Source: a virus (taxonomy: Duplodnaviria; Heunggongvirae; Uroviricota; Caudoviricetes). Taken from it: a DNA stretch of 46,697 bases. Below the pieces are notes generated by a model. That model saw nothing but the letters and a program-made list of their open reading frames with translations. It was not told the origin of the DNA and made no database searches. The position numbers and the translations under genes are program-made. Shown here piece by piece: positions 1,984 to 15,752 of this stretch (position 1 is the first letter of the stretch; every line of letters starts with the position of its first letter). The stretch lies in IMG/VR virus record IMGVR_UViG_2534681933_000025; one strand, given 5' to 3'.

Positions 1984-2793
1984 TTATTCCTCTGAATTAT
2001 CGATTACACTGTATTCCCCGGTTAATACAGAGGAATCTGCAGGATCGATTGTCAGTGGTTCCTTTTCATCCATTGATACTGCACGCTGGATCTCAATTGA
2101 TACGGGCAGATATTTGAACAGGCGACGAATAGCCGTTTTCTTTGCCATTTCTTCCCAGTGAGTTACCCACGGCCCGTTATTACCAGCTTTACTCTGGCTG
2201 CGCACCAGCTCAATCTGTTTGCGCGTCATAACTTCAAACTGAGTACCTCCGTCTTTCAGTCTTGCGACAGCATAGACGTGGGTAACAGGGGCATCTTCGT
2301 TTTCTCCTGGGCGGTGTATTAACTTTTCATCAAGGCCAAATTCGAAATTAAACTCGTCACCTTCACGGACAACACGGGCTGACAGGCTGGCGATTTGACC
2401 TGAACGGCGAGCCAGATCAATCATGCCGCGATAGCCAATGATTAGCTGAACGTTTTTTTTACCGCTCTTTTCGTTTTTATTACCAAAAGGCAGTAAATAT
2501 GCATGACCGAGGGCGCTACCGGGCTCAAGTCCGAGCTGTGAACACTGTACGATTGCACTGACAAAACTCATAGTGTCACAGTTTCCTAACGCCGGAACTT
2601 TACGAATTTCTGTGGTGGCGATACGGATCATACGTTCAGCCGTCATATGGCGTGGAAGAGCTGCTGCCAGTTGCTCTTTCATTGATGGCTGGTTAATAAA
2701 ACTAATCACGTCGTTATTTTTAATTGCTGCTGGTGCACGGTTTCCCTGAGTTTTTTGCAGATCGGCTTTTGCGATTGGTGGTTGCTTAGTCAT
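1984..2793 (-). CDS. recT: RecT single-strand annealing recombinase
   Basis: 269 aa from [16 protein letters not shown]...; matches E. coli Rac RecT over full length from memory; overlaps recE stop. Confidence 0.9.
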
Positions 2794-5458
2794 TTGCATA
2801 TTCCTTAGCCCAGCGGGGCAGTGATAACGTCTTAATAGCTGGCCATTCATCGGTATTGAGGCAGTCAGCCAGGGTTCGCAGATTGCGGTGATATTCCAGC
2901 TGACCTGCCAGTTTTGCTTCTTCGCCCATCATGAAAATTTCAACCGGATAACGTCCGCATTCAATAGTTGTGCTGGCAACCAGAAAAACGAAAGTTGGCT
3001 GCACTCCAAACTGTGCTTCATAACCGTCACTGTAGAATGCATCCTGAACGTGATAGCGGTAGTCGTAATAAGCGGTTTTGAATCGTTGAATATCCGCCGT
3101 AGTTTTCACGTCCATGATCCAGTGAAATTCAGGGATAATTTTGTCCGGACGGCACCGACACAAAATTGCTGTTTCAGGATCTTCCCAGTAAATTGATGAT
3201 TCAGCGTGTCCGGCGCTTTCAACAAGCCATTGCCCCAGCGGCAAAGCCATAACGCTCTGATACATGAGTTCAATTTTCCGGCCTTCTTCGGCAGTGATAA
3301 CCGTTTTTCCTGTGCTTGCGCATTCCCTCAGAAACGCTTTCTCTTCTTCTTTTCCGGAGTTTGTCCGGCGGTTAAATTCAGGTGCTACGATAAAGCGGTT
3401 ACTGAATTCTTCCGGCTCAAGTACCCGGCAGTGGAAAGCGGTTCCTAAATCGAGCGTTTTTGTCTTTGTGGTGTCCACGGGGGCATTTTTACGCCACAAA
3501 TACAGTGCCGGAGTATCAGCAATGTCATCGAGCTGAGACTTACTGACACCGGGACCCGCGTGGTAATTCTCATTCGAAATTCCGTAATAAATACCTGGCT
3601 CTATGTCTTCTACGATTACGGGATCTGCGACTTCGCCAGTTTCATCACTGCAATCGCGATGCGGATCGCTGCCAGCATTCTCATTGTGCGGATGTTCAGC
3701 GCCTTCCATTTCCTCCGGATCTTTTTCCTTAGCTTCAACCTGATTCTCTTCACCGAATGTTTCCTGGTATGTTGCGTCGCCCATCACCGCGCCACAATCA
3801 GGGCAGTTGCCGCCACCGCTCTGACCGCAGGCGGTGCAGACTTTTTCCGGTTCCTGTTGCGCTACTGGTTCGGATTGTTTCGTTTCTGGCTCGTTTTGTA
3901 ACGCATTTGGGCTGTTTTGTTCCGCTTTTTGGTCGTTCCGTTCCGATTCATGCTGGTTCTGGTTCACAGAATCGCGAGTCTGGATCCCCTTGACCCATTT
4001 CGGATCATTAGGGTCGCTAATCCCCTCAACAAATTCACCACGCGATACAGCAAGTAACTTATCGGCGCCAGGCTGGCTGATATTGGCTGCCTGCATAATT
4101 TTGTTTACTTCGTCAGCGGTGACTTTTACTTGGTTAGCGGAACTCACCTGCGACTGAGCATCCAGCGACTGCGCGTTCTGGCCATGTTCAGTTGTATCCG
4201 GTTCCATTGTTTCAGTTGTTGCCTGTTCACCTGCCATTGCGTCAGATGGTTGTGGTTTTTCTTCTTCTGTTTCACGCTCAGTAACCACCTCGCGGTTAAT
4301 TTCTTCCAGGATATCTTTTTCCGGTGTATGCCGGGCAGCTGTGAGAGTTTCCTTGCTGGGGTTCTCGTGATCAGTTTCCGTCAAATAGGCGTTGATATAC
4401 CCCTGAAGGCGTCCCGGGTAGTGATAAAATTCAGGGTGTGCGCTTCGGATAAGTGCAAAAATAGCGGCGCGGGAATAGTCCAGAATACCCGGGGTTGCGC
4501 GAAGTGCTGCGGACCATTCTTTGAACGGACTTTCTCTTTTCAGGACGATTTCTTTTGCGCGACGATAAACGCTGCCCGGAATTTCATAAATATTAAAATC
4601 CATCGGAAGTGTGGCTGCTGCAATCTCCACATCCAGCGTATCGAAGGTGTGTACTAAATTCGGATTGCGATCGGTTTTGTTCCCGCCACCGGCATTTGCA
4701 CCGGAAGCCGTACGGGTGATACGCGAAACACGATTTCCTTTCATCCACTCTTTTGTCAGCAGACCCCGATCAGTGTAGTCAGCGTCCAGGTATGCCTCGA
4801 AAAAAGCAGTTATCAGTCCCAGGTCTGAATTACCGGGATTAGGGAAAACTTTGTCAGTGTCGCGTGCCAGTTTATGAAGGTCGCGAATCTCCAGCGGGTC
4901 GAGCAGCTTTGTGTTGTGGGAAATGGCCAGGGCAGTAACAGCCGGCAGTTCTTCCGCCCGTGCTATATGTAATGCCTGAAGTTCTTCCCGTGCAACGTGC
5001 GTTACTGGTTTTTCGCTGCCGTGTTGCGCAAGCCAGCGAATGGGCAGCTCCTGACCAGAAACCGGCAGGAGCATATTCTCCTCAATCTCCGTCATGTCTT
5101 CGCCGTTGACGTTGGTATTGTCAGTACTGGCTGGTTTCTCCTGCACGGAGGGAGAGGGCGCGATAAATACCATTGTAATGCCATCTTCCCCGCCTTTTTC
5201 GTATCGGTTGCAGAATTCGGTATCAAACACGCCTTCAGGTGGAAGGTCATTCACAACGGGTAAATGGACGCGAACGGGTTTTTTAAAGTCGTCTTCATCA
5301 TAATCGTTGTCATCCATTGCGGTAATGCAGCGGGAGATGGCAACAGATAATTTTTTTGCTGTAGTCCAGTAAAAACCACCTTTAATTCCCAGACGTTTTC
5401 TGACTTTGTCATTTTTTGCTTCGCAATATAGCGCAAATTCTTCTTTATCAGTGCTCAT
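2786..5458 (-). CDS. recE: RecE exonuclease VIII
   Basis: 890 aa; C-terminal two-thirds recognisable as Rac RecE (e.g. ...[26 protein letters not shown]...RWAKEYAND); N-terminal region appears divergent. Confidence 0.85.
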
Positions 5459-9809: not shown

Positions 9810-10580
9810 ATGGAAACCGTATTGCATGCACTGAAAGCGATGGGTAAAGCCAATTCTGTTGAACTGGCGGCGCGGCTTGATATCAGCCGTGAAGAAGTTC
9901 TCAACGAACTGTGGGAACTCAAAAAAAATGGCGTTGTTGATAAAACGGGTCACACCTGGTTTCTGGCTGGCGAAGGTGAATCCCGGGTAACCGAAGAGCG
10001 GCCAGTAAAATCTGAAGCACAGGATATGCTGACCGGGGAGGTCGAACAAAAAGTTACCGCAGACATGATGATTGAGTTTATCGGTCAGGATGGTGCTAAA
10101 ACGTGTGAGGAACTGGCGGGTAAGTTCGGCGTCAGTACTCGCAAGGTTGCCTCCACGCTGGCGGTGGTAACCGCAACGGGGCGGCTGGCACGCGTTAATC
10201 AGAACGGTAAATTTCGTTACTGCATACCGGGCGCTGATTTACCGGCAGAGCCGGAAGCTGCATCGGTAACGGAAACCGATAGTAAAGCCTTTCCTCAGCC
10301 AACAGGTGTTGCGTTACCAGTCCGGGAAGCGGAAACACAGGAAGAAATAAAAACTGAAAGTGTGGCGGTCACAGTGCAGTCACAGCCGTCGTTCACCAGA
10401 AAGCATCCGGATGGTCTGATTTTACCATCGCTGCATGTGGCTAACCGCGAGCTGCGCCGGGCAAAAGGTCAGGTTCAGAAGTGGGAGCGTGTCTGCGCCG
10501 CGCTGCGGGAGCTGAACAAGCACCGGGATATTGTTCGACAGATTACTGATTCTTCCCGCCGTGTTGTATCGGAAAAGTGA
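9810..10580 (+). CDS. Hypothetical protein, two winged-helix-like regions
   Basis: 256 aa; N-terminal ...ELAARLDISREEVLNELWELKKNG... and a second similar segment; function unknown. Confidence 0.45.
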   Translation: METVLHALKAMGKANSVELAARLDISREEVLNELWELKKNGVVDKTGHTWFLAGEGESRVTEERPVKSEAQDMLTGEVEQKVTADMMIEFIGQDGAKTCEELAGKFGVSTRKVASTLAVVTATGRLARVNQNGKFRYCIPGADLPAEPEAASVTETDSKAFPQPTGVALPVREAETQEEIKTESVAVTVQSQPSFTRKHPDGLILPSLHVANRELRRAKGQVQKWERVCAALRELNKHRDIVRQITDSSRRVVSEK

Positions 10581-10595
10581 TTGCCGGAGGCGCTT

Positions 10596-10988
10596 ATGGC
10601 AAAAGTATTTACACCAGAAGAGCGGGAAGAAGTGACGGCGCGCATTGTGGAATTCGTGCGCCTGAGCGGACGAGAAACTTTTCGACAACTGGCAGATAAA
10701 ACGGGTGTCAGTAAGACCGCTATTCGTCGTTTATCTGGTGCGCTTGCGGCCAGTGGTGATGTCTGGCTCTCTGGTTGCGGGGTATTTCCATCAGAGCAGG
10801 CGTATCGCGTATGGCGTAAGACACCGGAGAAGGCTGCTGACCCGACACTGATTCGAAAGTTACCTGACGGAGAAATACGTCGTTACAACAGACGGCAGAA
10901 CATAATTTGTCGTGAGTGCCGCCAGAGCGAAGTTATGCAGCGTGTGCTGGCGTTCTATCGGGGAAACTTTCAGGAGGTGATGGAGTGA
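10596..10988 (+). CDS. Hypothetical protein
   Basis: ATG with GGAGG SD 5 nt upstream (MAKVFTPEER...); ORF track start 10581 is TTG. Confidence 0.45.
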   Translation: MAKVFTPEEREEVTARIVEFVRLSGRETFRQLADKTGVSKTAIRRLSGALAASGDVWLSGCGVFPSEQAYRVWRKTPEKAADPTLIRKLPDGEIRRYNRRQNIICRECRQSEVMQRVLAFYRGNFQEVME

Positions 10989-11281
10989 GGGTGAGAGTTT
11001 ATATTGCCGGTCCAATGACGGGATATGAAAATTTCAACCGTGAGGCGTTTCACAAGGCGGAAGAGGAACTGAAACGGGAAGGGCATACCGTCTTAAACCC
11101 GGCAGTACTTCCGGACGGGCTGACACAGCCGCACTACATGGATATTTGCATGGCAATGATTCGTTGCGTGGATGCGATTTACATGCTGAATGGCTGGCAG
11201 CGGTCAGCGGGCGCTAAGGCAGAGCTGGCACTGGCGGAGAAACTGGGACATGCGGTGATTTATCAGGAGGTGGCTCAATGA
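10985..11281 (+). CDS. DUF4406-like (nucleoside 2-deoxyribosyltransferase-like) protein
   Basis: GTG start overlapping upstream stop (GTGA) with AGGAGG SD at -7; VYIAGPMTG motif typical of this fold. Confidence 0.55.
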   Translation: MRVRVYIAGPMTGYENFNREAFHKAEEELKREGHTVLNPAVLPDGLTQPHYMDICMAMIRCVDAIYMLNGWQRSAGAKAELALAEKLGHAVIYQEVAQ

Positions 11282-11886
11282 GAGAGGTTAACTATGAGGC
11301 GCTTCGTGAAGCAGCAGAGAAAGCAACTAAAGGATGCTACATCGTAGGGCATACATCGGGCAATCAGCATGGGAATATAACAGGAGTTTTTGTTTGTCAA
11401 AAATGGAAAGGAGAACCCGGTGGCGTAATTGCAGAATGTCACGTTAACTGCCTGGTTGAAACAGATGCTCAGGCTTATGCAAACGCAGAATTCATAGCAG
11501 AGGCTAGCCCGGCTACCGTGCTGGCACTACTGGATGAACGGGAAGCCCAAAGCAAACGCATTGCAGAGCTGGAGACTAATCTTGCTGCGCTTACGGCGGA
11601 GAATGCGGGGCTGAATAAATTTATCGTACAGAGTTGCTACGTTTTTGATGGTGAGCAGGATGAAATATCTGATGCGTATATCTGCGCAACAGACGGAGGT
11701 ATGCCGCCAACCCCGGCTACAGATGCTTTCCTGGCTGATGTACGGGCGGTGGCGTTTGACGAACTTCGCGCGGCGTTTGTCAGGCACGCAAAAGTTGCAG
11801 GACTGGATGATGCCGATACCGTAACGCTTAAGGAAGTGACAGAAGCATTGTTGCATTGTGCGGAACAGATTCGCGCGCCTGAATAA
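11278..11886 (+). CDS. Ead/Ea22-like protein
   Basis: 202 aa; N-terminal ...YEALREAAEKATKG... resembles Ea22-like nin-region proteins; ATGA overlap with upstream gene. Confidence 0.55.
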   Translation: MREVNYEALREAAEKATKGCYIVGHTSGNQHGNITGVFVCQKWKGEPGGVIAECHVNCLVETDAQAYANAEFIAEASPATVLALLDEREAQSKRIAELETNLAALTAENAGLNKFIVQSCYVFDGEQDEISDAYICATDGGMPPTPATDAFLADVRAVAFDELRAAFVRHAKVAGLDDADTVTLKEVTEALLHCAEQIRAPE

Positions 11887-11983
11887 TTAAATTTAGTGTT
11901 GTAAATAAAATTTAATCCTTAACCGGAGGGATTTCTGCACCCTCAGAACATCAGGAGGCCGCCTGAAAGGGCGGTAATGAAAA

Positions 11984-12460
11984 ATGACTGAATTAACAAA
12001 AGAGCAATTAATCGAAGAAGCTAAATTAAAAATAGCGATTGCGAAATGCCATCCCAATTCAGGGGTGGCACGAGTAGAGGGTGAGTTATTCAAAATTGCA
12101 CTGGCATCGCTGGAAGCAGAACCGGTGGCATGGACTGATGACGGTCGTGACCAGTTCGAATCGCTTATCAGGTTTCACGCGGATGATAAAAACCATGAAG
12201 CATTATTGCTTCGTGCCAACGGAGGGATGAATTACCAGGATCCGAATGTTGATTTGGCATGGATATTCTGGAAGTCCAGTCGTGAGCACATGCTTCAGGG
12301 CAAAGGCGAACCTGGTAAACAAGTATGTGAATTAACAATGTTGGTTAAGCGATTAGCCAGTTCGTTAAAAAGCGTCAATAAATCAAGCAAGTTGCCTGAT
12401 ACTGCGATGGAATATCTGAAGCAGAACGGATTTGTAGGTGTGGAGGATATTTTACGATGA
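11984..12460 (+). CDS. Hypothetical protein
   Basis: 158 aa ORF, no recognisable motif. Confidence 0.45.
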   Translation: MTELTKEQLIEEAKLKIAIAKCHPNSGVARVEGELFKIALASLEAEPVAWTDDGRDQFESLIRFHADDKNHEALLLRANGGMNYQDPNVDLAWIFWKSSREHMLQGKGEPGKQVCELTMLVKRLASSLKSVNKSSKLPDTAMEYLKQNGFVGVEDILR

Positions 12461-12751
12461 CCTAGCCTGGGGCATTCACAACGGTAGGGATTGCAATGGC
12501 GGTGGCGTTGATTGTGTATTCGATTTGTCGCTGGGGATAAAAACGATTTGCGGGGAAAGGATAGTTAAGTAGAATTGCTGCGGGTGCTTGAGGCTATCTG
12601 TCTCAGGCATGAACACCAAAAGGCAGATAGAGAAAAGCCCCAGTTAACATTACGCGTCCGGCAAGACGCTTAACATTAATCTGAGGCCATATCTATGACT
12701 TGCACATGTAGGTTAGCCTCTTACGTGCCGAAAGGCAAGGAGAAGCAGGCT

Positions 12752-12907
12752 ATGAAGCAGCAAAAGGCGATGTTAATCGCCCTGATCGTCATCTGTTTAA
12801 CCGTCATAGTGACGGCACTGGTAACGAGGAAAGACCTCTGCGAGGTACGAATCCGAACCGGCCAGACGGAGGTCGCTGTCTTCACAGCTTACGAACCTGA
12901 GGAGTAA
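12752..12907 (+). CDS. hokD: Hok/Gef-family type I toxin (HokD/RelF-like)
   Basis: 51 aa MKQQKAMLIALIVICLTVIVTALVTRKDLCEVRIRTGQTEVAVFTAYEPEE: single TM helix plus conserved Cys and C-terminal AYEP motif of Hok family; AGGAG SD. Confidence 0.8.
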   Translation: MKQQKAMLIALIVICLTVIVTALVTRKDLCEVRIRTGQTEVAVFTAYEPEE

Positions 12908-12977
12908 GAGACCAGGCGGGGGAGAAATCCCTCGCCACCTCTGATGTGTCAGGCATCCTCAACGCACCCGCACTTAA

Positions 12978-13005
12978 CCCGCTTCGGCGGGTTTTGTTCT
13001 TTTTG
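12978..13005 (+). terminator. Intrinsic terminator after hok (CCCGCTTCGGCGGG + T-tract)
   Basis: GC hairpin with TTCG loop followed by TTTTGTTCTTTTT. Confidence 0.7.
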
Positions 13006-13047
13006 TGAAAAAAATTCCCTTAAAGGAGATTTTTTTAACTAAAAAGG

Positions 13048-13076
13048 TTTACTTTGCTTTCGTATATGGTAAATTT
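13048..13076 (+). promoter_or_regulatory. Candidate sigma70 promoter for XRE/ImmA unit (TTTACT-16-TAAATT)
   Basis: AT-rich region upstream of 13152 ATG with near-consensus hexamers. Confidence 0.4.
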
Positions 13077-13151
13077 TAGGAATTAGAATTTAAGCGCCCA
13101 TCAGGCTTGCGTTAGGCAAGTCTGCTAAATCAACAAATTGAGGATAAAATC

Positions 13152-13511
13152 ATGGCACTCACTGAATTCGGTAAGGCCGTTAGAAAAGCGAGGATCGATA
13201 CTGACAGTACTCTTCTGACTATGTCTCAAGAACTGGGCACTACGCCAGCGTTTCTTAGCGGTTTAGAAACTGGTAGCAAAAAAATACCTCTGAAGTGGGT
13301 TAAGAAGATTGATTCTTACTTCAAGGCCAAAGGTGTAGAAATTGAAGGGTTACAGGAGTTAGCGGCAGTTGCGAATGACTCAGTTCCAGTAAACGGTTTG
13401 TCTCAGCAACAGAAAATGCTTGTAGCGGGATTCGCTAAGTCGCAGTTTACGCCGGAACAGCTAAAGAGTTTTGCAGATTTATTGCAAAAGATTAATAACA
13501 ATGAGGGGTAA
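13152..13511 (+). CDS. XRE-family HTH transcriptional regulator
   Basis: 119 aa; HTH_XRE pattern ...TLLTMSQELGTTPAFLSGLETGSKKIP...; GAGGA SD. Confidence 0.75.
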   Translation: MALTEFGKAVRKARIDTDSTLLTMSQELGTTPAFLSGLETGSKKIPLKWVKKIDSYFKAKGVEIEGLQELAAVANDSVPVNGLSQQQKMLVAGFAKSQFTPEQLKSFADLLQKINNNEG

Positions 13512-13513
13512 TT

Positions 13514-13990
13514 ATGTATCAAATGAGAGGTAACAGGGTGTCACCGATGCAAGAAGAAGAAATAGCCTACAGAGCTATAAACTTCTGTAATGCTATTGGT
13601 CTTACAGCCTCAAAGCGCAAAAGAAAGCGTTATGATATGTTCTTTGAAAGCCTGTCAATTTATGGGGTTACTCTTGACGTCAGGACCGACAAAGAGTGGG
13701 AGGCTCTGACGTATGATCTAACTATCGGACATTGTGACCCCGCTTCTCTAACAATTACGGTTCCCAATAAAATATATGTGAATGCTTGCCTTGGGGAAGA
13801 GCATGCGCTTGCTGTTATCTTCCACGAGCTAGGTCATTTGCTTCTTGGACACAAAGCAGTTTTACACTTTTCAGTTAAAGAACCTACTCGTATTGAGGAT
13901 GCAGAATGGCAGGCAGATACATTTGCGGATATCGTACTGGAAACAATTGGCGTGAGAACACAACAGATGTCGTTCGATTTTTATATGTAA
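13514..13990 (+). CDS. ImmA/IrrE-family (COG2856-like) metallopeptidase
   Basis: 158 aa; HExxH motif (FHELGHLLLGH); start 2 nt after XRE stop, i.e. translationally coupled pair. Confidence 0.7.
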   Translation: MYQMRGNRVSPMQEEEIAYRAINFCNAIGLTASKRKRKRYDMFFESLSIYGVTLDVRTDKEWEALTYDLTIGHCDPASLTITVPNKIYVNACLGEEHALAVIFHELGHLLLGHKAVLHFSVKEPTRIEDAEWQADTFADIVLETIGVRTQQMSFDFYM

Positions 13991-13991
13991 A

Positions 13992-14014
13992 AGCCCTGCG
14001 CTAACAGGGCTTTT
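13992..14014 (+). terminator. Intrinsic terminator after ImmA gene
   Basis: AGCCCTG-loop-CAGGGC followed by TTTT. Confidence 0.6.
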
Positions 14015-14118
14015 AGGGACGGAAAGTGCGCTAACACATTCCGTAGTGTATGGAGATAATCCAATCACAACACTTTTTGTAGACAAGCGAAGTGTAGTGG
14101 TTCTCCCAACAAAGTGCA

Positions 14119-14138
14119 ACCTGTGTGGATTCACAGGT
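14119..14138. promoter_or_regulatory. Palindrome ACCTGTG-N6-CACAGGT upstream of Cys-rich ORF (candidate operator)
   Basis: 7-bp perfect inverted arms; lies 20 nt upstream of the 14158 ATG. Confidence 0.4.
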
Positions 14139-14157
14139 GAGCAGGGAAAACGAAATC

Positions 14158-14307
14158 ATGGCAATGGGTACCTGTCGCAAATGTGGCTGTCCATGTGAGA
14201 TCATTTTTCGCTACTCTGTGTGTGTAGATGGTGTAATGCGCCACGCGAAAAAAGGGAAGCCTTTCCCGATCCCACTTTGCAGTTGTAGTGGCAAGCACGC
14301 AGCTTGA
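14158..14307 (+). CDS. Small Cys-rich protein (possible zinc-binding), hypothetical
   Basis: 49 aa MAMGTCRKCGCPCEIIFRYSVCVDGVMRHAKKGKPFPIPLCSCSGKHAA with CxxCxC...C...CxC; start uncertain. Confidence 0.4.
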   Translation: MAMGTCRKCGCPCEIIFRYSVCVDGVMRHAKKGKPFPIPLCSCSGKHAA

Positions 14308-14325
14308 TGTTCAGTACTGACAAAA

Positions 14326-14350
14326 CCCGCTTCGGCGGGTTTTGTTTTTT
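14326..14350 (+). terminator. Intrinsic terminator, sequence-identical core to the one at 12978
   Basis: CCCGCTTCGGCGGG + TTTTGTTTTTT. Confidence 0.7.
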
Positions 14351-14422
14351 CCTGGCATTCTGGTTTACAATTCGCACGTCAGCCTGAACAACTGGCACCT
14401 GCTGCGCCAGCAGAGAAAGACG

Positions 14423-14701
14423 ATGGCGCACAATACCAAATCACACAATTCTGATAATTCAGCTGTCTTTGCCAGCAGGCACGGGCGGCGTTCCCGCACA
14501 TTCAAATCTGATTGGTACCAGCATCCCCCATGTACTGAAGAACAAGCTGAATGGCTAATTCAGTGCTACCGCAGACACGGATACGGGATTAAGAAAGCCC
14601 TCAGCCTCGATTATCGTCACTGGATAATCTCCGTCAGGCTTCCTTACTCTGAACGCCCACCGCGTCCGTCCCGCACATTCCAGCAACGCATCTGGAGGTA
14701 A
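14423..14701 (+). CDS. Hypothetical protein
   Basis: 92 aa from internal ATG (MAHNTKSHN...); the upstream part of the track ORF lies inside the terminator. Confidence 0.4.
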   Translation: MAHNTKSHNSDNSAVFASRHGRRSRTFKSDWYQHPPCTEEQAEWLIQCYRRHGYGIKKALSLDYRHWIISVRLPYSERPPRPSRTFQQRIWR

Positions 14702-14702
14702 C

Positions 14703-15752
14703 GTGCGGGTATTACTTCGACCTGTTCTGGTACCGGAACTCGGGCTGGTGGTCCTTAAGCCCGGTCGTGAATCATTGCCAGTTTTTCATCGCGGCAGGGT
14801 GCTGGTGGAGCCTGAACCGAAAAGCATGCGCGGTCTGCCGTCCGGAGTCGTCCCTGCCGTTCGCCAGCCGCTGGCGGAGGATAAATCATTACTGCCATTT
14901 TTCAGCGATGAGCGGGTGATTCATGCTGCGGGTGGCGCTGGTGCACTGTCTGACTGGTTATTACGTCACGTGAAATCCTGCCAGTGGCTACACGGTGATT
15001 ATCATCACAGCGAAACCGTCATTCACCGTTACGGTACCGGCGCGATGGTGTTGTGCTGGCACTGCGACAACCAGCTGCGGGAGCAGACATCTGATTCACT
15101 GGATCAACTTGCTCAACAGAATCTGGCCGCCTGGATGATTGACATCATCCGTCACGCAATGAATGGCGCACAGGAGCGTGAATTATCTCTGGCTGAATTA
15201 TCCTGGTGGGCGGTCCGCAATCAGGTGGCGGACGCGCTACCGGAAGCGGTATTACGTCGTTCGCTGGGGTTGCGTGCGGAAAAAATCCGCTCCGTATACC
15301 GTGAAAGCGACATCGTACCGGGAGAGCAGACCGCCACCAGCATACTGAAGCAGCGCACAAAAAATCTTGCGCCGTTGCCTCATGCCCACCAGCAACAGAA
15401 CCCACCACAGGAAAAGACGGTGGTATGCATCACCGTTGATCCGGAGTCTCCGGAATCTTTCATGAGGCGACCTAAACGTCGCCGTTGGGTAAATGAGAAA
15501 TATACGCGCTGGGTGAAGACACAGCCGTGTGCGTGTTGTGGTCAGCCAGCCGACGATCCCCATCACCTGATTGGTCACGGTCAGGGAGGGATGGGAACAA
15601 AGGCCCACGATATTTTCACGCTACCGTTGTGCCGGGAACATCACAACGAACTTCATGCGGATCCGCTGGCGTTCGAAGAAAAGCATGGTTCCCAGGTTGA
15701 TTTAATTTTTCGTTTTCTTGATCACGCCTTTGCAACCGGCGTGCTCGGGTAA
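14703..15752 (+). CDS. DUF968-family protein (YdfU-like), HNH-like Cys/His C-terminus
   Basis: 349 aa; GTG start with GGAGG SD; C-terminal CACCGQPADDPHHL...CREHHNELH; position before rusA/Q as in Qin-type prophages. Confidence 0.65.
   Translation: MRVLLRPVLVPELGLVVLKPGRESLPVFHRGRVLVEPEPKSMRGLPSGVVPAVRQPLAEDKSLLPFFSDERVIHAAGGAGALSDWLLRHVKSCQWLHGDYHHSETVIHRYGTGAMVLCWHCDNQLREQTSDSLDQLAQQNLAAWMIDIIRHAMNGAQERELSLAELSWWAVRNQVADALPEAVLRRSLGLRAEKIRSVYRESDIVPGEQTATSILKQRTKNLAPLPHAHQQQNPPQEKTVVCITVDPESPESFMRRPKRRRWVNEKYTRWVKTQPCACCGQPADDPHHLIGHGQGGMGTKAHDIFTLPLCREHHNELHADPLAFEEKHGSQVDLIFRFLDHAFATGVLG

Follow-up and report, generated by a model that had tools for sequence, protein, structure and literature searches.

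Gene content of the hok-ORF279 interval

The stretch of DNA analysed here (the window, 46,697 bp) is a lambdoid prophage that encodes RecET; it comes from E. coli O55:H7 RM12579 and is 100% identical to NC_017656.1, which supplied the RefSeq annotation. The features of the interval, together with the recombination genes of the prophage, are:

1984-2850, - strand: RecT annealase (Pfam RecT, E = 9e-57)
2786-5458, - strand: RecE/ExoVIII (Pfam Exonuc_VIII, E = 1e-33, and a PDDEXK-like domain)
12582..12757, + strand: hok/sok regulatory region (Rfam RF01794 sok, 115 bits against a gathering threshold of 59, E = 7e-27)
start 12695, + strand: mok-like ORF overlapping hokD
12752..12907, + strand: hokD-type type I toxin gene (Pfam HOK_GEF, E = 2.9e-23; RefSeq hokD in NC_017656.1)
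12976..12998, + strand: T1, hairpin copy 1 (stem 12976-12993, loop TTCG, T-rich tail; also follows hok in empty-site loci)
13030..13075, + strand: putative cassette promoter/operator, read off the sequence (TTTTTTTAAC..GGTT motif; -35 TTTACT at 13048-13053; extended -10 TGgTAAATT at 13067-13075)
13152..13511, + strand: XRE-type helix-turn-helix regulator, 119 aa (RefSeq 'helix-turn-helix domain-containing protein'; PADLOC HTH_VI, E = 1e-6, with a weak capH-like match)
13514..13990, + strand: ImmA/IrrE (M78) metallopeptidase (Pfam Peptidase_M78, 24.6 bits against a cut-off of 22; PHROG 87 metallo-protease, E = 7e-17; RefSeq, with the start at 13547)
13991..14157, + strand: possibly structured leader or spacer separating ImmA from the Cys-rich ORF (RNAalifold, aligned with its Klebsiella counterpart)
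14158..14307, + strand: 49-aa Cys-rich ORF, third gene of the cassette (a Klebsiella phage ORF of equal length is 73% identical, with six conserved Cys)
14319..14346, + strand: T2, hairpin copy 2 (repeat at 14324-14346; matched in alignment by the Klebsiella cassette's native terminator)
14347..14422, + strand: leader of the ORF279 module (TTTTCCTGGCATTCTGGTTTACAAT...; adjoins the hairpin in empty sites; the same right flank stands in loci L002 and L003 and behind seven cargos)
14423..15752, + strand: ORF279 (92 aa, PHROG 1212, E = 1.6e-34) and DUF968/YdfU (Pfam DUF968, E = 1.6e-77; RefSeq)

Left of T1, a Hok/Gef ORF, an overlapping mok-like ORF and a sok region together make up a hok/sok type I toxin-antitoxin locus. 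The hok 3′UTR with T1 was also considered as an IsrK-like sRNA locus and rejected, given an Rfam score of 27 bits against 50 and a gene order that differs from that around Gifsy-1 isrK. To the right, the DUF968 protein has a sub-threshold Pfam match to HNHc_6, and RusA is encoded directly downstream, beside it.

The layout of the putative cassette promoter is kept in the Klebsiella homologue (TTGATT, 16 nt, TGgTATCTT), where the rest of the region aligns poorly; a strict consensus promoter scan did not report the candidate. The XRE-type regulator has no Pfam match at E ≤ 0.01, the Cys-rich ORF belongs to no family in Pfam, PHROG or PADLOC, and for the three-gene cassette PADLOC gave no defence-system assignment beyond weak CapH/CapP-like and RmrA-like matches. 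In the spacer ahead of the Cys-rich ORF, RNAalifold returned 38 pairs, four of them compensatory, from an alignment of two sequences, which is suggestive of a structured leader and no more; its first hairpin (13991-14016) resembles a terminator or attenuator.

Between T1 and T2 lie 1,325 bp with a GC content of 42.4%, compared with 48.8% and 52.8% in the 2-kb flanks and 51.7% in the window. The earlier note's description of about 1.3 kb of AT-rich cargo is thus right in direction, though the difference from the flanks is modest. With this deviating base composition, a terminator of its own (T2), and presence or absence between genes that adjoin in related phages, the XRE/ImmA/Cys-rich unit is best read as a moron-type cassette between hok and the ORF279-DUF968-rusA-Q block of a Rac/Qin-like lambdoid prophage. 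Acquisition of morons has been described as 'undefined, perhaps illegitimate' recombination (PMC2839356, discussion).

Two identical terminator-like hairpins bracket the cassette

The 23-nt sequence AACCCGCTTCGGCGGGTTTTGTT occurs on the + strand in exact copies at 12976-12998 and 14324-14346, confirming the exact duplication that had been claimed after hok and after the Cys-rich ORF; the repeat extends to 27 nt if one mismatch is allowed. No third copy was found in the 46,697-bp window with up to 3 mismatches, none of 100 shuffled windows contained a match, and the chance expectation for exact 23-mer pairs is ~1.5e-5. T1 begins 69 nt 3′ of the hokD stop codon, and the second copy, in T2, 17 nt 3′ of the stop of the Cys-rich ORF.

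Both copies were shaped like intrinsic terminators in a terminator scan, with a GC-rich stem-loop followed by a T-rich tail, and both lie on the coding strand a short distance 3′ of a stop codon. Folding gave T1 a 7-bp stem (-13.9 kcal/mol, z = -3.2) and T2 a 12-bp stem (-22 kcal/mol, z = -5.1), the latter longer because complementary ACAAA is supplied by the cassette. Nearly identical hairpins are labelled 'terminator' in some phage records. We predict that the hok mRNA ends Rho-independently at T1 and that T2 is the terminator at the 3′ end of the cassette; both would work as terminators in vivo, and T2 may serve as an insulator ahead of ORF279-DUF968-rusA-Q.

Empty and occupied sites

An empty site, consisting of hok, a single hairpin and ORF279/DUF968, was present in 2,140 of 5,426 complete E. 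coli genomes, and its sequence equals the T1 left flank, one hairpin and the T2 right flank. Such sites are what a comparison with prophages carrying hok and a single hairpin had been proposed to reveal, and their joining of both outer flanks supports the suggestion that the cassette was inserted at the hok terminator. The XRE/ImmA/Cys-rich cassette itself was found in 48 of the 5,426 genomes, invariably at the hok-ORF279 site and with 98-100% identity between copies, while an unrelated lipoprotein-like insert occupies the same site in 255 complete E. coli genomes. Other two-piece matches (L358-L361) proved to be empty junctions of the usual kind, with additional DNA on the upstream side of hok. 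No near-isogenic empty prophage was found among the complete genomes, every match of ≥99.9% identity being occupied, so that no recent gain or loss is documented. Counts from the first viral and genome scans are counts among the matches listed, and as many loci are related, numbers of loci do not equal numbers of independent events.

Unrelated cargos meet ORF279 through the same hairpin

In complete IMG/VR scans for the hairpin directly ahead of the ORF279 leader, seven unrelated cargo families on viral contigs ended in the hairpin directly upstream of ORF279: a lipoprotein-like cargo (51 loci), a Fic/Doc pair (18), the XRE/ImmA/Cys cargo (10), a GHKL-ATPase with a C5-methylase (3), an HTH-M78 fusion with a 213-aa protein (2), and two singletons. 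The right breakpoints lie 1-3 nt left of CCCGC in 7/7 families. The left breakpoints fall at hairpin/tail positions 14-23 in 6/6, at varying positions, a scatter as expected for crossovers. The length of the repeat differs between cargos (13-14, 20-21 and 23-27 nt), and three families have the hairpin on the right side only. The same stem-loop motif thus flanks variable cargo with breakpoints inside the motif, as in linker or PeSL-like arrangements, and the proposal that the hairpin serves as a module boundary is borne out by seven families meeting ORF279 through it with breakpoints so close to the stem.

The two halves of the joint also occur apart. The right neighbours of hok-T vary (rem, a 328-bp AT-rich insert and others), T-ORF279 also occurs without hok upstream, and Doc-T also stands ahead of a different module. 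The hairpin is not obligatory: neither rem nor the 328-bp AT-rich insert of locus L006, both at this site, has a right-hand copy.

Homologous cassettes in other hosts bear on the origin of T2. The Klebsiella homologue (74% nucleotide identity) aligns through to GAGAGACCCGCATTATGCGGGTTTTTT, which stands at the T2 position with the same stem arms as T2 and a different loop; a second hairpin there, AAAACCCGCTTCGGCGGGTTTTTT, with an identical core CCCGCTTCGGCGGG, follows 110 nt further on, before dinI. In Salmonella phage SW-37 a homologue of the Doc cargo (72% identity), lacking both hok and ORF279, is followed by AACCCGCTTCGGCGGGTTTTTT, an identical hairpin. The earlier note had spoken of a duplicated hok terminator: insertion at that terminator stands, but a literal copy is improbable, since T2 takes the place that the cassette's own terminator has in Klebsiella and the SW-37 hairpin occurs without hok. 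T2 is, on these alignments, probably not a literal duplicate of the hok terminator. No foreign context was found for the lipoprotein cargo within the phage collection. A left-side hairpin was not found in cargo donors, the upstream neighbour in the Klebsiella and SW-37 relatives being without one, which leaves the left junctions unexplained by demonstrated homology. When the sequence behind the hairpin of the foreign homologues was compared with that behind T1, as a circular permutation, only T-rich low-complexity resemblance was seen.

A generic terminator, nearly confined to one joint in lambdoid loci

The hairpin is a generic UUCG-tetraloop terminator and not specific to hok. Between an A-tract and a T-tract, its 20-mer AACCCGCTTCGGCGGGTTTT also terminates the E. 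coli rplM-rpsI operon, and among the matches listed the exact 20-mer occurs in >120 bacterial species with flanks that all differ. Near-matches to a 34-mer occur in 1,697 phage records, and a search for additional genome-wide copies gave a median of 7 such sites per E. coli genome (range 2-16). In 198 lambdoid loci (1.95 Mb, with ~990 terminator-like hairpins), the hairpin core was found 230 times at these joints and once elsewhere, that one being a hok allele. The earlier note had held that a ubiquitous, REP-like element would undo its reading. This applies in part: the hairpin is indeed generic, but it is essentially confined to this joint in the lambdoid loci, and a dispersed repeat of the REP/BIME type, which would have hundreds of copies per genome at unrelated intergenic sites, was rejected on the 2-16 near-matches per E. 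coli genome and the two copies in the window.

Origin of the seam

We consider it reasonably probable that short-homology recombination brought the cassette in at a generic terminator that the partners shared, the seam of an accessory-gene hotspot. The cassette would be a self-contained accessory operon with its own promoter/operator, an XRE regulator, an ImmA/IrrE protease, a structured leader, a Cys-rich protein and T2, and the module seam would have arisen by recombination within a terminator sequence already common to both partners, namely the very stable A-tract/CCCGC-UUCG-GCGGG/T-tract hairpin. Non-allelic crossovers at 20-29-nt terminators, whether with a collinear phage genome or with some other donor, could lead to cargo being gained, lost or swapped. 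T1 would continue to end the hok transcript, T2 would block transcription of the cassette from entering the Q antiterminator operon, and the two hairpins, as direct repeats, would leave the cassette open to precise loss. Short or diverged homology suffices for RecT/Redβ-type annealases, and Rad52-like recombinases drive mosaicism among lambdoid phages through short homologous stretches; the minimal efficient pairing segment cited is 23-27 bp for Redβ and 31-34 bp for RecA (De Paepe et al. 2014, PMC3945230). The identity of 23-27 nt would thus approximate the minimal efficient pairing length of Rad52-like annealases, and this phage encodes RecT/RecE, the candidate machinery for short-homology recombination. 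We infer both that homology caused the joins and that this machinery may have acted at the hok-T joint. Against this reading, 23 nt is the bottom of the useful homology range, and selection alone could enrich terminators at both ends, because hok needs a terminator and a promoter-bearing insert upstream of Q must be insulated.

An explanation by convergence would have the cargos natively end in a popular terminator and be joined non-homologously, by illegitimate recombination, directly behind the hok terminator; inserts would survive selection only if insulated and if they spare the hok terminator, and the identity of the hairpins would not be causal. The abundance of the terminator in bacterial species (with differing flanks), at rplM-rpsI and in phage records speaks for it, as do foreign homologues of two cargos that already bear the hairpin or a near variant, and the two inserts without a right-hand copy. 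Random joining within an intergenic region of ~170 nt would not, however, place all right breakpoints within 1-3 nt of the 5′ edge of the stem; moreover, since the core stands at essentially no other terminator in 1.95 Mb of these phages, it is improbable that seven cargos each had it independently, unless homology picked them out. We regard convergence as unlikely. The occupied state could also be ancestral, with hok-T and T-ORF279 as separate modules and empty sites formed by repeated deletion between hairpins: direct repeats of 23-27 nt at a spacing of 1.3 kb can delete precisely, and each half is found independently. Empty sites are, however, ~45 times commoner than the cassette (2,140 against 48 genomes) and diverse in their alleles, and the near-identity of the cassette over its 48 genomes implies recent spread, so that we hold this order of events to be quite improbable; because recombination would again have to take place at the hairpin, it amounts to a version of short-homology joining and not to a true rival. 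A target-site duplication left by transposase-like insertion into the hok terminator would account for a direct repeat around an insert that related genomes lack, but is effectively refuted, with a negligible chance of being correct. The repeat has no fixed length across cargos, 12999-14323 holds no transposase or terminal inverted repeats, T2 corresponds in the alignment to the terminator native to the Klebsiella cassette, and three families have the right-hand hairpin only. A length of 23 nt is also far above that of known target-site duplications.

The hairpin might instead be an active cassette-exchange site resembling those of integrons or PeSL cassettes, at which circles of cargo plus hairpin excise and re-insert at any hairpin copy, possibly with structure-specific help from the DUF968/HNH-like protein, RusA or RecET. 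The direct-repeat arrangement T-cargo-T is the product expected of single-crossover integration of a circle with one T, the hairpin moves with cargos into foreign contexts (SW-37, Klebsiella), defence and accessory cassettes accumulate at the hok-ORF279 site, the DUF968 protein, with its sub-threshold HNH-like motif, and RusA are encoded directly downstream, and the mini-circles of T4-like phages offer a precedent (PMC2839356). Set against this are the presence of two hairpin copies and no array in 46.7 kb, cargo in SW-37 and Klebsiella without two flanking copies, and SW-37 sequence behind the hairpin that departs from the 5′ end of the E. coli cargo beyond TTTTTCG. No circles or excision products are documented, no near-isogenic empty site was found, and a hairpin so short and generic does not resemble known recombinase sites. 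We judge such an active site unlikely. A bolder formulation, in which the hairpin is the attachment point of a lambdoid cassette-exchange system and units of operon plus terminator circulate, possibly as mini-circles, to be captured between hok and DUF968/RusA/Q via RecT/RecE or a structure-specific nuclease, is likewise speculative and has, in our view, a small chance of being right.

Relation to known systems

With a generic terminator of 23-29 nt, a common empty site, seven or more unrelated cargos and RecT/RecE, the locus is a compact natural test case for the entry of moron or defence cassettes; the cargos at the seam include Fic/Doc, two XRE/ImmA-type modules, an ATPase and methylase pair and a lipoprotein. 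If popular terminators act as linkers, this would explain why accessory genes gather at transcriptionally insulated seams and would suggest a simple rule for predicting hotspots. If they do not, the cassette is an ordinary moron with a common terminator. Should the active cassette-exchange site prove true, temperate phages would have their own equivalent of PeSL shuffling or integron capture, and moron acquisition would gain a concrete mechanism.

The nearest likeness is to the morons of lambdoid phages (Juhala/Hendrix 2000, reviewed in PMC3594210), as the cassette is an extra transcription unit between genes that are adjacent in relatives, with its own terminator, a putative promoter, a GC content of 42% against 49-53%, and genes of accessory or defence type. 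The moron-accretion view gives regulatory elements no part as a vehicle of mobility (PMC2839356, discussion), whereas here the terminator coincides with the breakpoints of seven cargo families. In this respect the hairpin resembles the 'linker' sequences in the modular theory of Botstein and Campbell, short conserved sequences at module boundaries that permit exchange between collinear lambdoid genomes. The exchanges of De Paepe et al. (PMC3945230) used hundreds of bp of diverged homology, in contrast to the single generic terminator of 23-27 nt in this case. The E. coli rplM-rpsI terminator shares the identical A-/T-tract-flanked 20-mer, but stands in a core-genome context and, unlike T1 and T2, has no association with insertions.

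Integron gene cassettes likewise lie close to promoters or terminators and have hairpin-forming boundary sites, diverse cargo and a site-cargo-site architecture upon integration of a circle. The attC sites of integrons, however, measure 57-141 bp and carry extrahelical bases and a conserved R/L box structure, whereas the hairpin here is 18-28 nt with a UUCG loop, and there is no IntI, attI or array; the only integrase in the window is the prophage integrase at 1-1236, and the locus is not an integron. The PeSL (promoter-early stem-loop) cassettes of the T4-type phages RB49 and phi1 (Arbiol et al. 2010, PMC2839356) are similar in that the non-essential genes of a hyperplastic region lie between conserved terminator stem-loops, which are proposed to provide short homologies for insertion, deletion and replacement as well as insulation. 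PeSLs are composites of promoter and stem-loop with ~50 copies per genome and demonstrated mini-circles (PMC2839356), whereas the repeat described here is a bare terminator without promoter, in two copies per prophage of a temperate lambdoid phage.

Organisation of the locus

The window matches a prophage of E. coli O55:H7 RM12579 at 100% identity; in it, a small cassette lies between two copies, T1 and T2, of one hairpin. The gene order is as follows.

Integrase, first in gene order
RecT and RecE, after the integrase and before the replication and nin-type genes
Replication and nin-type genes, between RecT/RecE and sok/hokD
sok/hokD, left of T1 (Rfam sok, 115 bits; Pfam HOK_GEF)
12976-12998, + strand, hairpin copy T1
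13152-13511, XRE-type HTH gene, right of T1
13514-13990, ImmA/IrrE M78 peptidase
13991-14157, structured spacer of ~170 nt, between ImmA and the Cys-rich ORF
14158-14307, conserved Cys-rich ORF of 49 aa, followed by T2
14324-14346, + strand, hairpin copy T2
ORF279, right of T2, 92 aa, PHROG 1212, named from its 279-bp annotated coding sequence
DUF968/YdfU (14703-15752), RusA and Q, downstream of ORF279 in that order

The C-terminal part of DUF968/YdfU shows the motif CxxC...HH...CxxHH, and the protein matches Pfam HNHc_6 below threshold (E = 1.2e-4). Within the nin region it lies upstream of RusA, at the place taken in lambda by the Rap nuclease.

Exact search confirmed the duplication described in the earlier note: the 23-mer AACCCGCTTCGGCGGGTTTTGTT is present exactly twice, no further copy with up to 3 mismatches was found in the window or in 100 shuffles, and the chance expectation for such a pair is ~1.5e-5. 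The repeat extends to 27 nt when one mismatch is allowed. By sequence criteria both copies match intrinsic terminators. In T1 a 7-bp stem capped by a TTCG loop precedes a T-rich tail (-13.9 kcal/mol); the stem of T2 reaches 12 bp (-22 kcal/mol), because cassette-side ACAAA pairs with the tail TTTGT. The description of the cargo as AT-rich holds in direction, the contrast being only modest: GC content is 42.4% in the 1,325-bp interval, compared with 48.8% and 52.8% for its flanks. The hok 3′UTR hairpin together with T1 (12916-12997) gave a sub-threshold Rfam match to isrK (27 bits, gathering score 50); gene organisation differs at the Gifsy-1 isrK locus, and probably just the two-hairpin shape is in common.

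The XRE/ImmA pair shows weak CapH/CapP-like matches. The Cys-rich ORF is 73% identical to a Klebsiella phage ORF, with all six Cys kept, and had no family in Pfam, PHROG or PADLOC; it may be an effector under XRE/ImmA control. The spacer begins with a terminator- or attenuator-like hairpin (AAAGCCCTG...CAGGGCTTT), and its structure is conserved between E. coli and Klebsiella (L129, Klebsiella phage ST13-OXA48phi12.4, 3334-3508), with 38 predicted pairs, 4 of them compensatory in this two-sequence comparison. The third gene may be under the control of this spacer, acting either as a regulated leader or as a small RNA.

Empty and occupied sites

In many E. coli prophages ORF279 follows hok directly. 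Alignment to such prophages, as had been suggested, gave the exact empty junction in two loci (L002, L003), where the left flank of T1 runs through a single hairpin into the right flank of T2. A 161-nt query for this junction matched without interruption in 2,140 of 5,426 complete E. coli genomes, which bears out insertion at the hok terminator. The cassette is found in 48 genomes at 98-100% identity, between hok and ORF279 in all of them. No near-isogenic empty version of the RM12579 prophage was found among complete genomes, so neither gain nor loss in the very recent past is on record.

The same site holds other occupants: a lipoprotein-like ORF of 393 bp (255 genomes), rem (for example in K-12 Qin) and an AT-rich non-coding insert of 328 bp. 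Three complete IMG/VR scans, excluding the hok-type left flank by design, were pooled with the listed matches of the first scan, and yielded at least seven unrelated cargo families, each with the hairpin at its end and the ORF279 leader immediately beyond.

Cargo families ending in the hairpin before ORF279 (counts are loci, not independent events)
Lipoprotein-like: at least 51 loci
Fic/Doc with small upstream ORF: at least 18 loci
XRE/ImmA/Cys: at least 10 loci
GHKL-type ATPase with restriction-like domain plus C5 cytosine methyltransferase: at least 3 loci
HTH-M78 fusion plus 213-aa protein: at least 2 loci
Singletons L290 and L336: 1 locus each

In four of the seven families hok and its hairpin stand on the left, so that two copies bracket the cargo; in the other three, both hok and any related hairpin are absent upstream. 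The right-hand copy is missing in two inserts at the site. The partners also vary: hok and its hairpin are followed by rem, the AT-rich insert or other sequences, and Doc and its hairpin by ORF279 in some loci and a different module in others. Relative to the empty site, all right breakpoints (7/7) lie 1-3 nt left of CCCGC, and all left breakpoints (6/6) at positions 14-23 of the hairpin plus tail. The proposal that the hairpin serves as a module boundary is thereby strengthened.

In lipoprotein-cargo loci (L004 1230-1260, L005 905-945, L028) the left hairpin lacks 7 nt (GGTTTTG) and its fold is lost (-4.5 kcal/mol, z = 0); transcription from hok probably continues across the lipoprotein gene as far as the right-hand hairpin, where it would stop. 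The methyltransferase module (L100 ~10400-13900; also L269 and L274), with a 703-aa ATPase carrying a restriction-enzyme-like domain, is likewise separated from ORF279 by a terminal copy of the hairpin, lacks upstream hok and looks like a restriction/defence unit at the same hotspot. At L117 (497-2332; also L351) hairpin copies bracket a 213-aa protein, its family not recognised, and after it a 373-aa HTH-Peptidase_M78 fusion, a second ImmA-type cargo unrelated to the cassette.

Distribution of the hairpin

The hairpin is not hok-specific; it appears to be a popular, convergent terminator of the form A-tract/CCCGC-UUCG-GCGGG/T-tract. The E. coli rplM-rpsI operon ends in the same 20-mer (hairpin with tract flanks). 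Among the matches listed, over 120 species-representative genomes contain this 20-mer; they span Pseudomonas to Saccharibacteria, and the flanks differ in every case. Every E. coli genome contains near-matches to a longer 34-mer (median 7, range 2-16 places), and 1,697 of 50,697 phage records do too, some of these matches being annotated as terminators; in IMG/VR the hairpin also occurs in phages of 37-66% GC, tail modules included. A search for extra copies thus finds them, as a widespread terminator sequence; at just 2-16 places per E. coli genome it is not the REP-like element that would have undercut the earlier note. Across 198 lambdoid loci (1.95 Mb, ~990 terminator-like hairpins) its 14-nt core occurs 230 times at hok/ORF279/Doc joints and once elsewhere, there in a hok allele, so recurrence at the junction is not background.

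In a Serratia sp. locus (L138, minus strand) two 20-mer copies lie 151 nt apart, each preceded by a tRNA-3′-end-like sequence (…TCCTCCCGGATGCACCATCTAAGAAA); the arrangement resembles the duplication of an att site at a tRNA gene, terminator included.

Origin of the right-hand copy

A three-gene cassette homologous to this one (74% nt identity) is present in Klebsiella phage ST13-OXA48phi12.4, in a different neighbourhood lacking hok. The alignment spans the promoter/operator region and the terminator, whose arms are the same and whose loop differs (E. coli ACAAAACCCGC-TTCG-GCGGGTTTTGT, Klebsiella AGAGACCCGC-ATTAT-GCGGGTTTTTT). Between this cassette and dinI (L129 3663-3819) stand tandem related terminators, ACCCGCATTATGCGGGT and AAAACCCGCTTCGGCGGGTTTT, ~110 nt apart, the second, before dinI, having an identical core CCCGCTTCGGCGGG (AAAACCCGCTTCGGCGGGTTTTTT); they may be what an earlier exchange of modules left behind at a like junction. 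Salmonella phage SW-37 is a second, independent case of cargo with its own predicted hairpin: a Doc-cargo homologue (72% identity) is followed by AACCCGCTTCGGCGGGTTTTTT, with neither hok nor ORF279 nearby. Judged from these alignments, T2 is probably not a copy made at insertion, which speaks against a literal duplication of the hok terminator. Among the Klebsiella and SW-37 relatives examined, no cargo donor with a matching hairpin on its left side was found.

Proposed mechanism of exchange

We consider it fairly probable that the joins arose by recombination within terminator sequence common to the partners, which would explain why T1 and T2 are identical. Most economically, T1 would be the terminator of hok and T2 that of the cassette. 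Given the collinearity of lambdoid genomes, one non-allelic crossover at the hairpin patch would give a viable phage with the intervening module gained, lost or swapped; template-switching during replication at the hairpin would lead to identical products and is indistinguishable here from annealing. Lambdoid mosaicism has been shown to arise through Rad52-like annealases acting on homology that is short or diverged, and the minimal efficient pairing segment is given as 23-27 bp for Redbeta versus 31-34 bp for RecA (PMC3945230). The identity observed (23 nt exact, 27 with one mismatch) fits the Redbeta range, and the prophage itself encodes RecT and RecE. Our confidence goes no further since no left-hairpin donor was found, two inserts lack the right copy, and the presence of terminators at both ends could come from selection by itself. 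T2 plausibly shields ORF279-DUF968-rusA-Q from a putative cassette promoter, and such insulation is a plausible selective reason for strong terminators on surviving inserts.

Convergence of terminators followed by illegitimate joining, to which the hairpin's wide distribution would lend itself, is unlikely, given a core nearly confined to the joints. An active site for the exchange of cassettes, working like mini-circles or an integron and perhaps aided by the HNH-like DUF968 protein or RusA, seems decidedly improbable; the variety of cargos would suit it. Ancestral occupancy with repeated deletion between two hairpins would also leave single-hairpin empty sites; we give it little credence as a separate account, and it is a variant of recombination within shared terminator sequence, not a true rival. 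A transposon-type target-site duplication would yield flanking repeats, but repeat length varies, transposase and inverted-repeat ends are absent, and the Klebsiella and SW-37 cargos have their own hairpins; it is therefore ruled out.

Comparison with known systems

The first interpretation of the locus was largely right. The site is a defence/accessory hotspot of Rac/Qin-like prophages, and makes moron acquisition experimentally tractable. None of integron cassette, REP element or transposon fits it. Like a moron, the cassette is present or absent between adjacent genes and has its own terminator and deviating GC, a promoter being only plausible. In the classical moron model regulatory elements are not the vehicle of mobility, whereas here the terminator coincides with the breakpoints; a bare generic terminator at the breakpoints of seven cargo families is modestly new. 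The 'linker' idea of modular theory, crossover at a short patch, is what we propose here. The promoter/stem-loop (PeSL) cassettes of T4-type phages are a documented analogue of linker exchange (PMC2839356); our locus behaves like linker- or PeSL-mediated shuffling, but its repeat lacks a promoter and is present in two copies rather than dozens.
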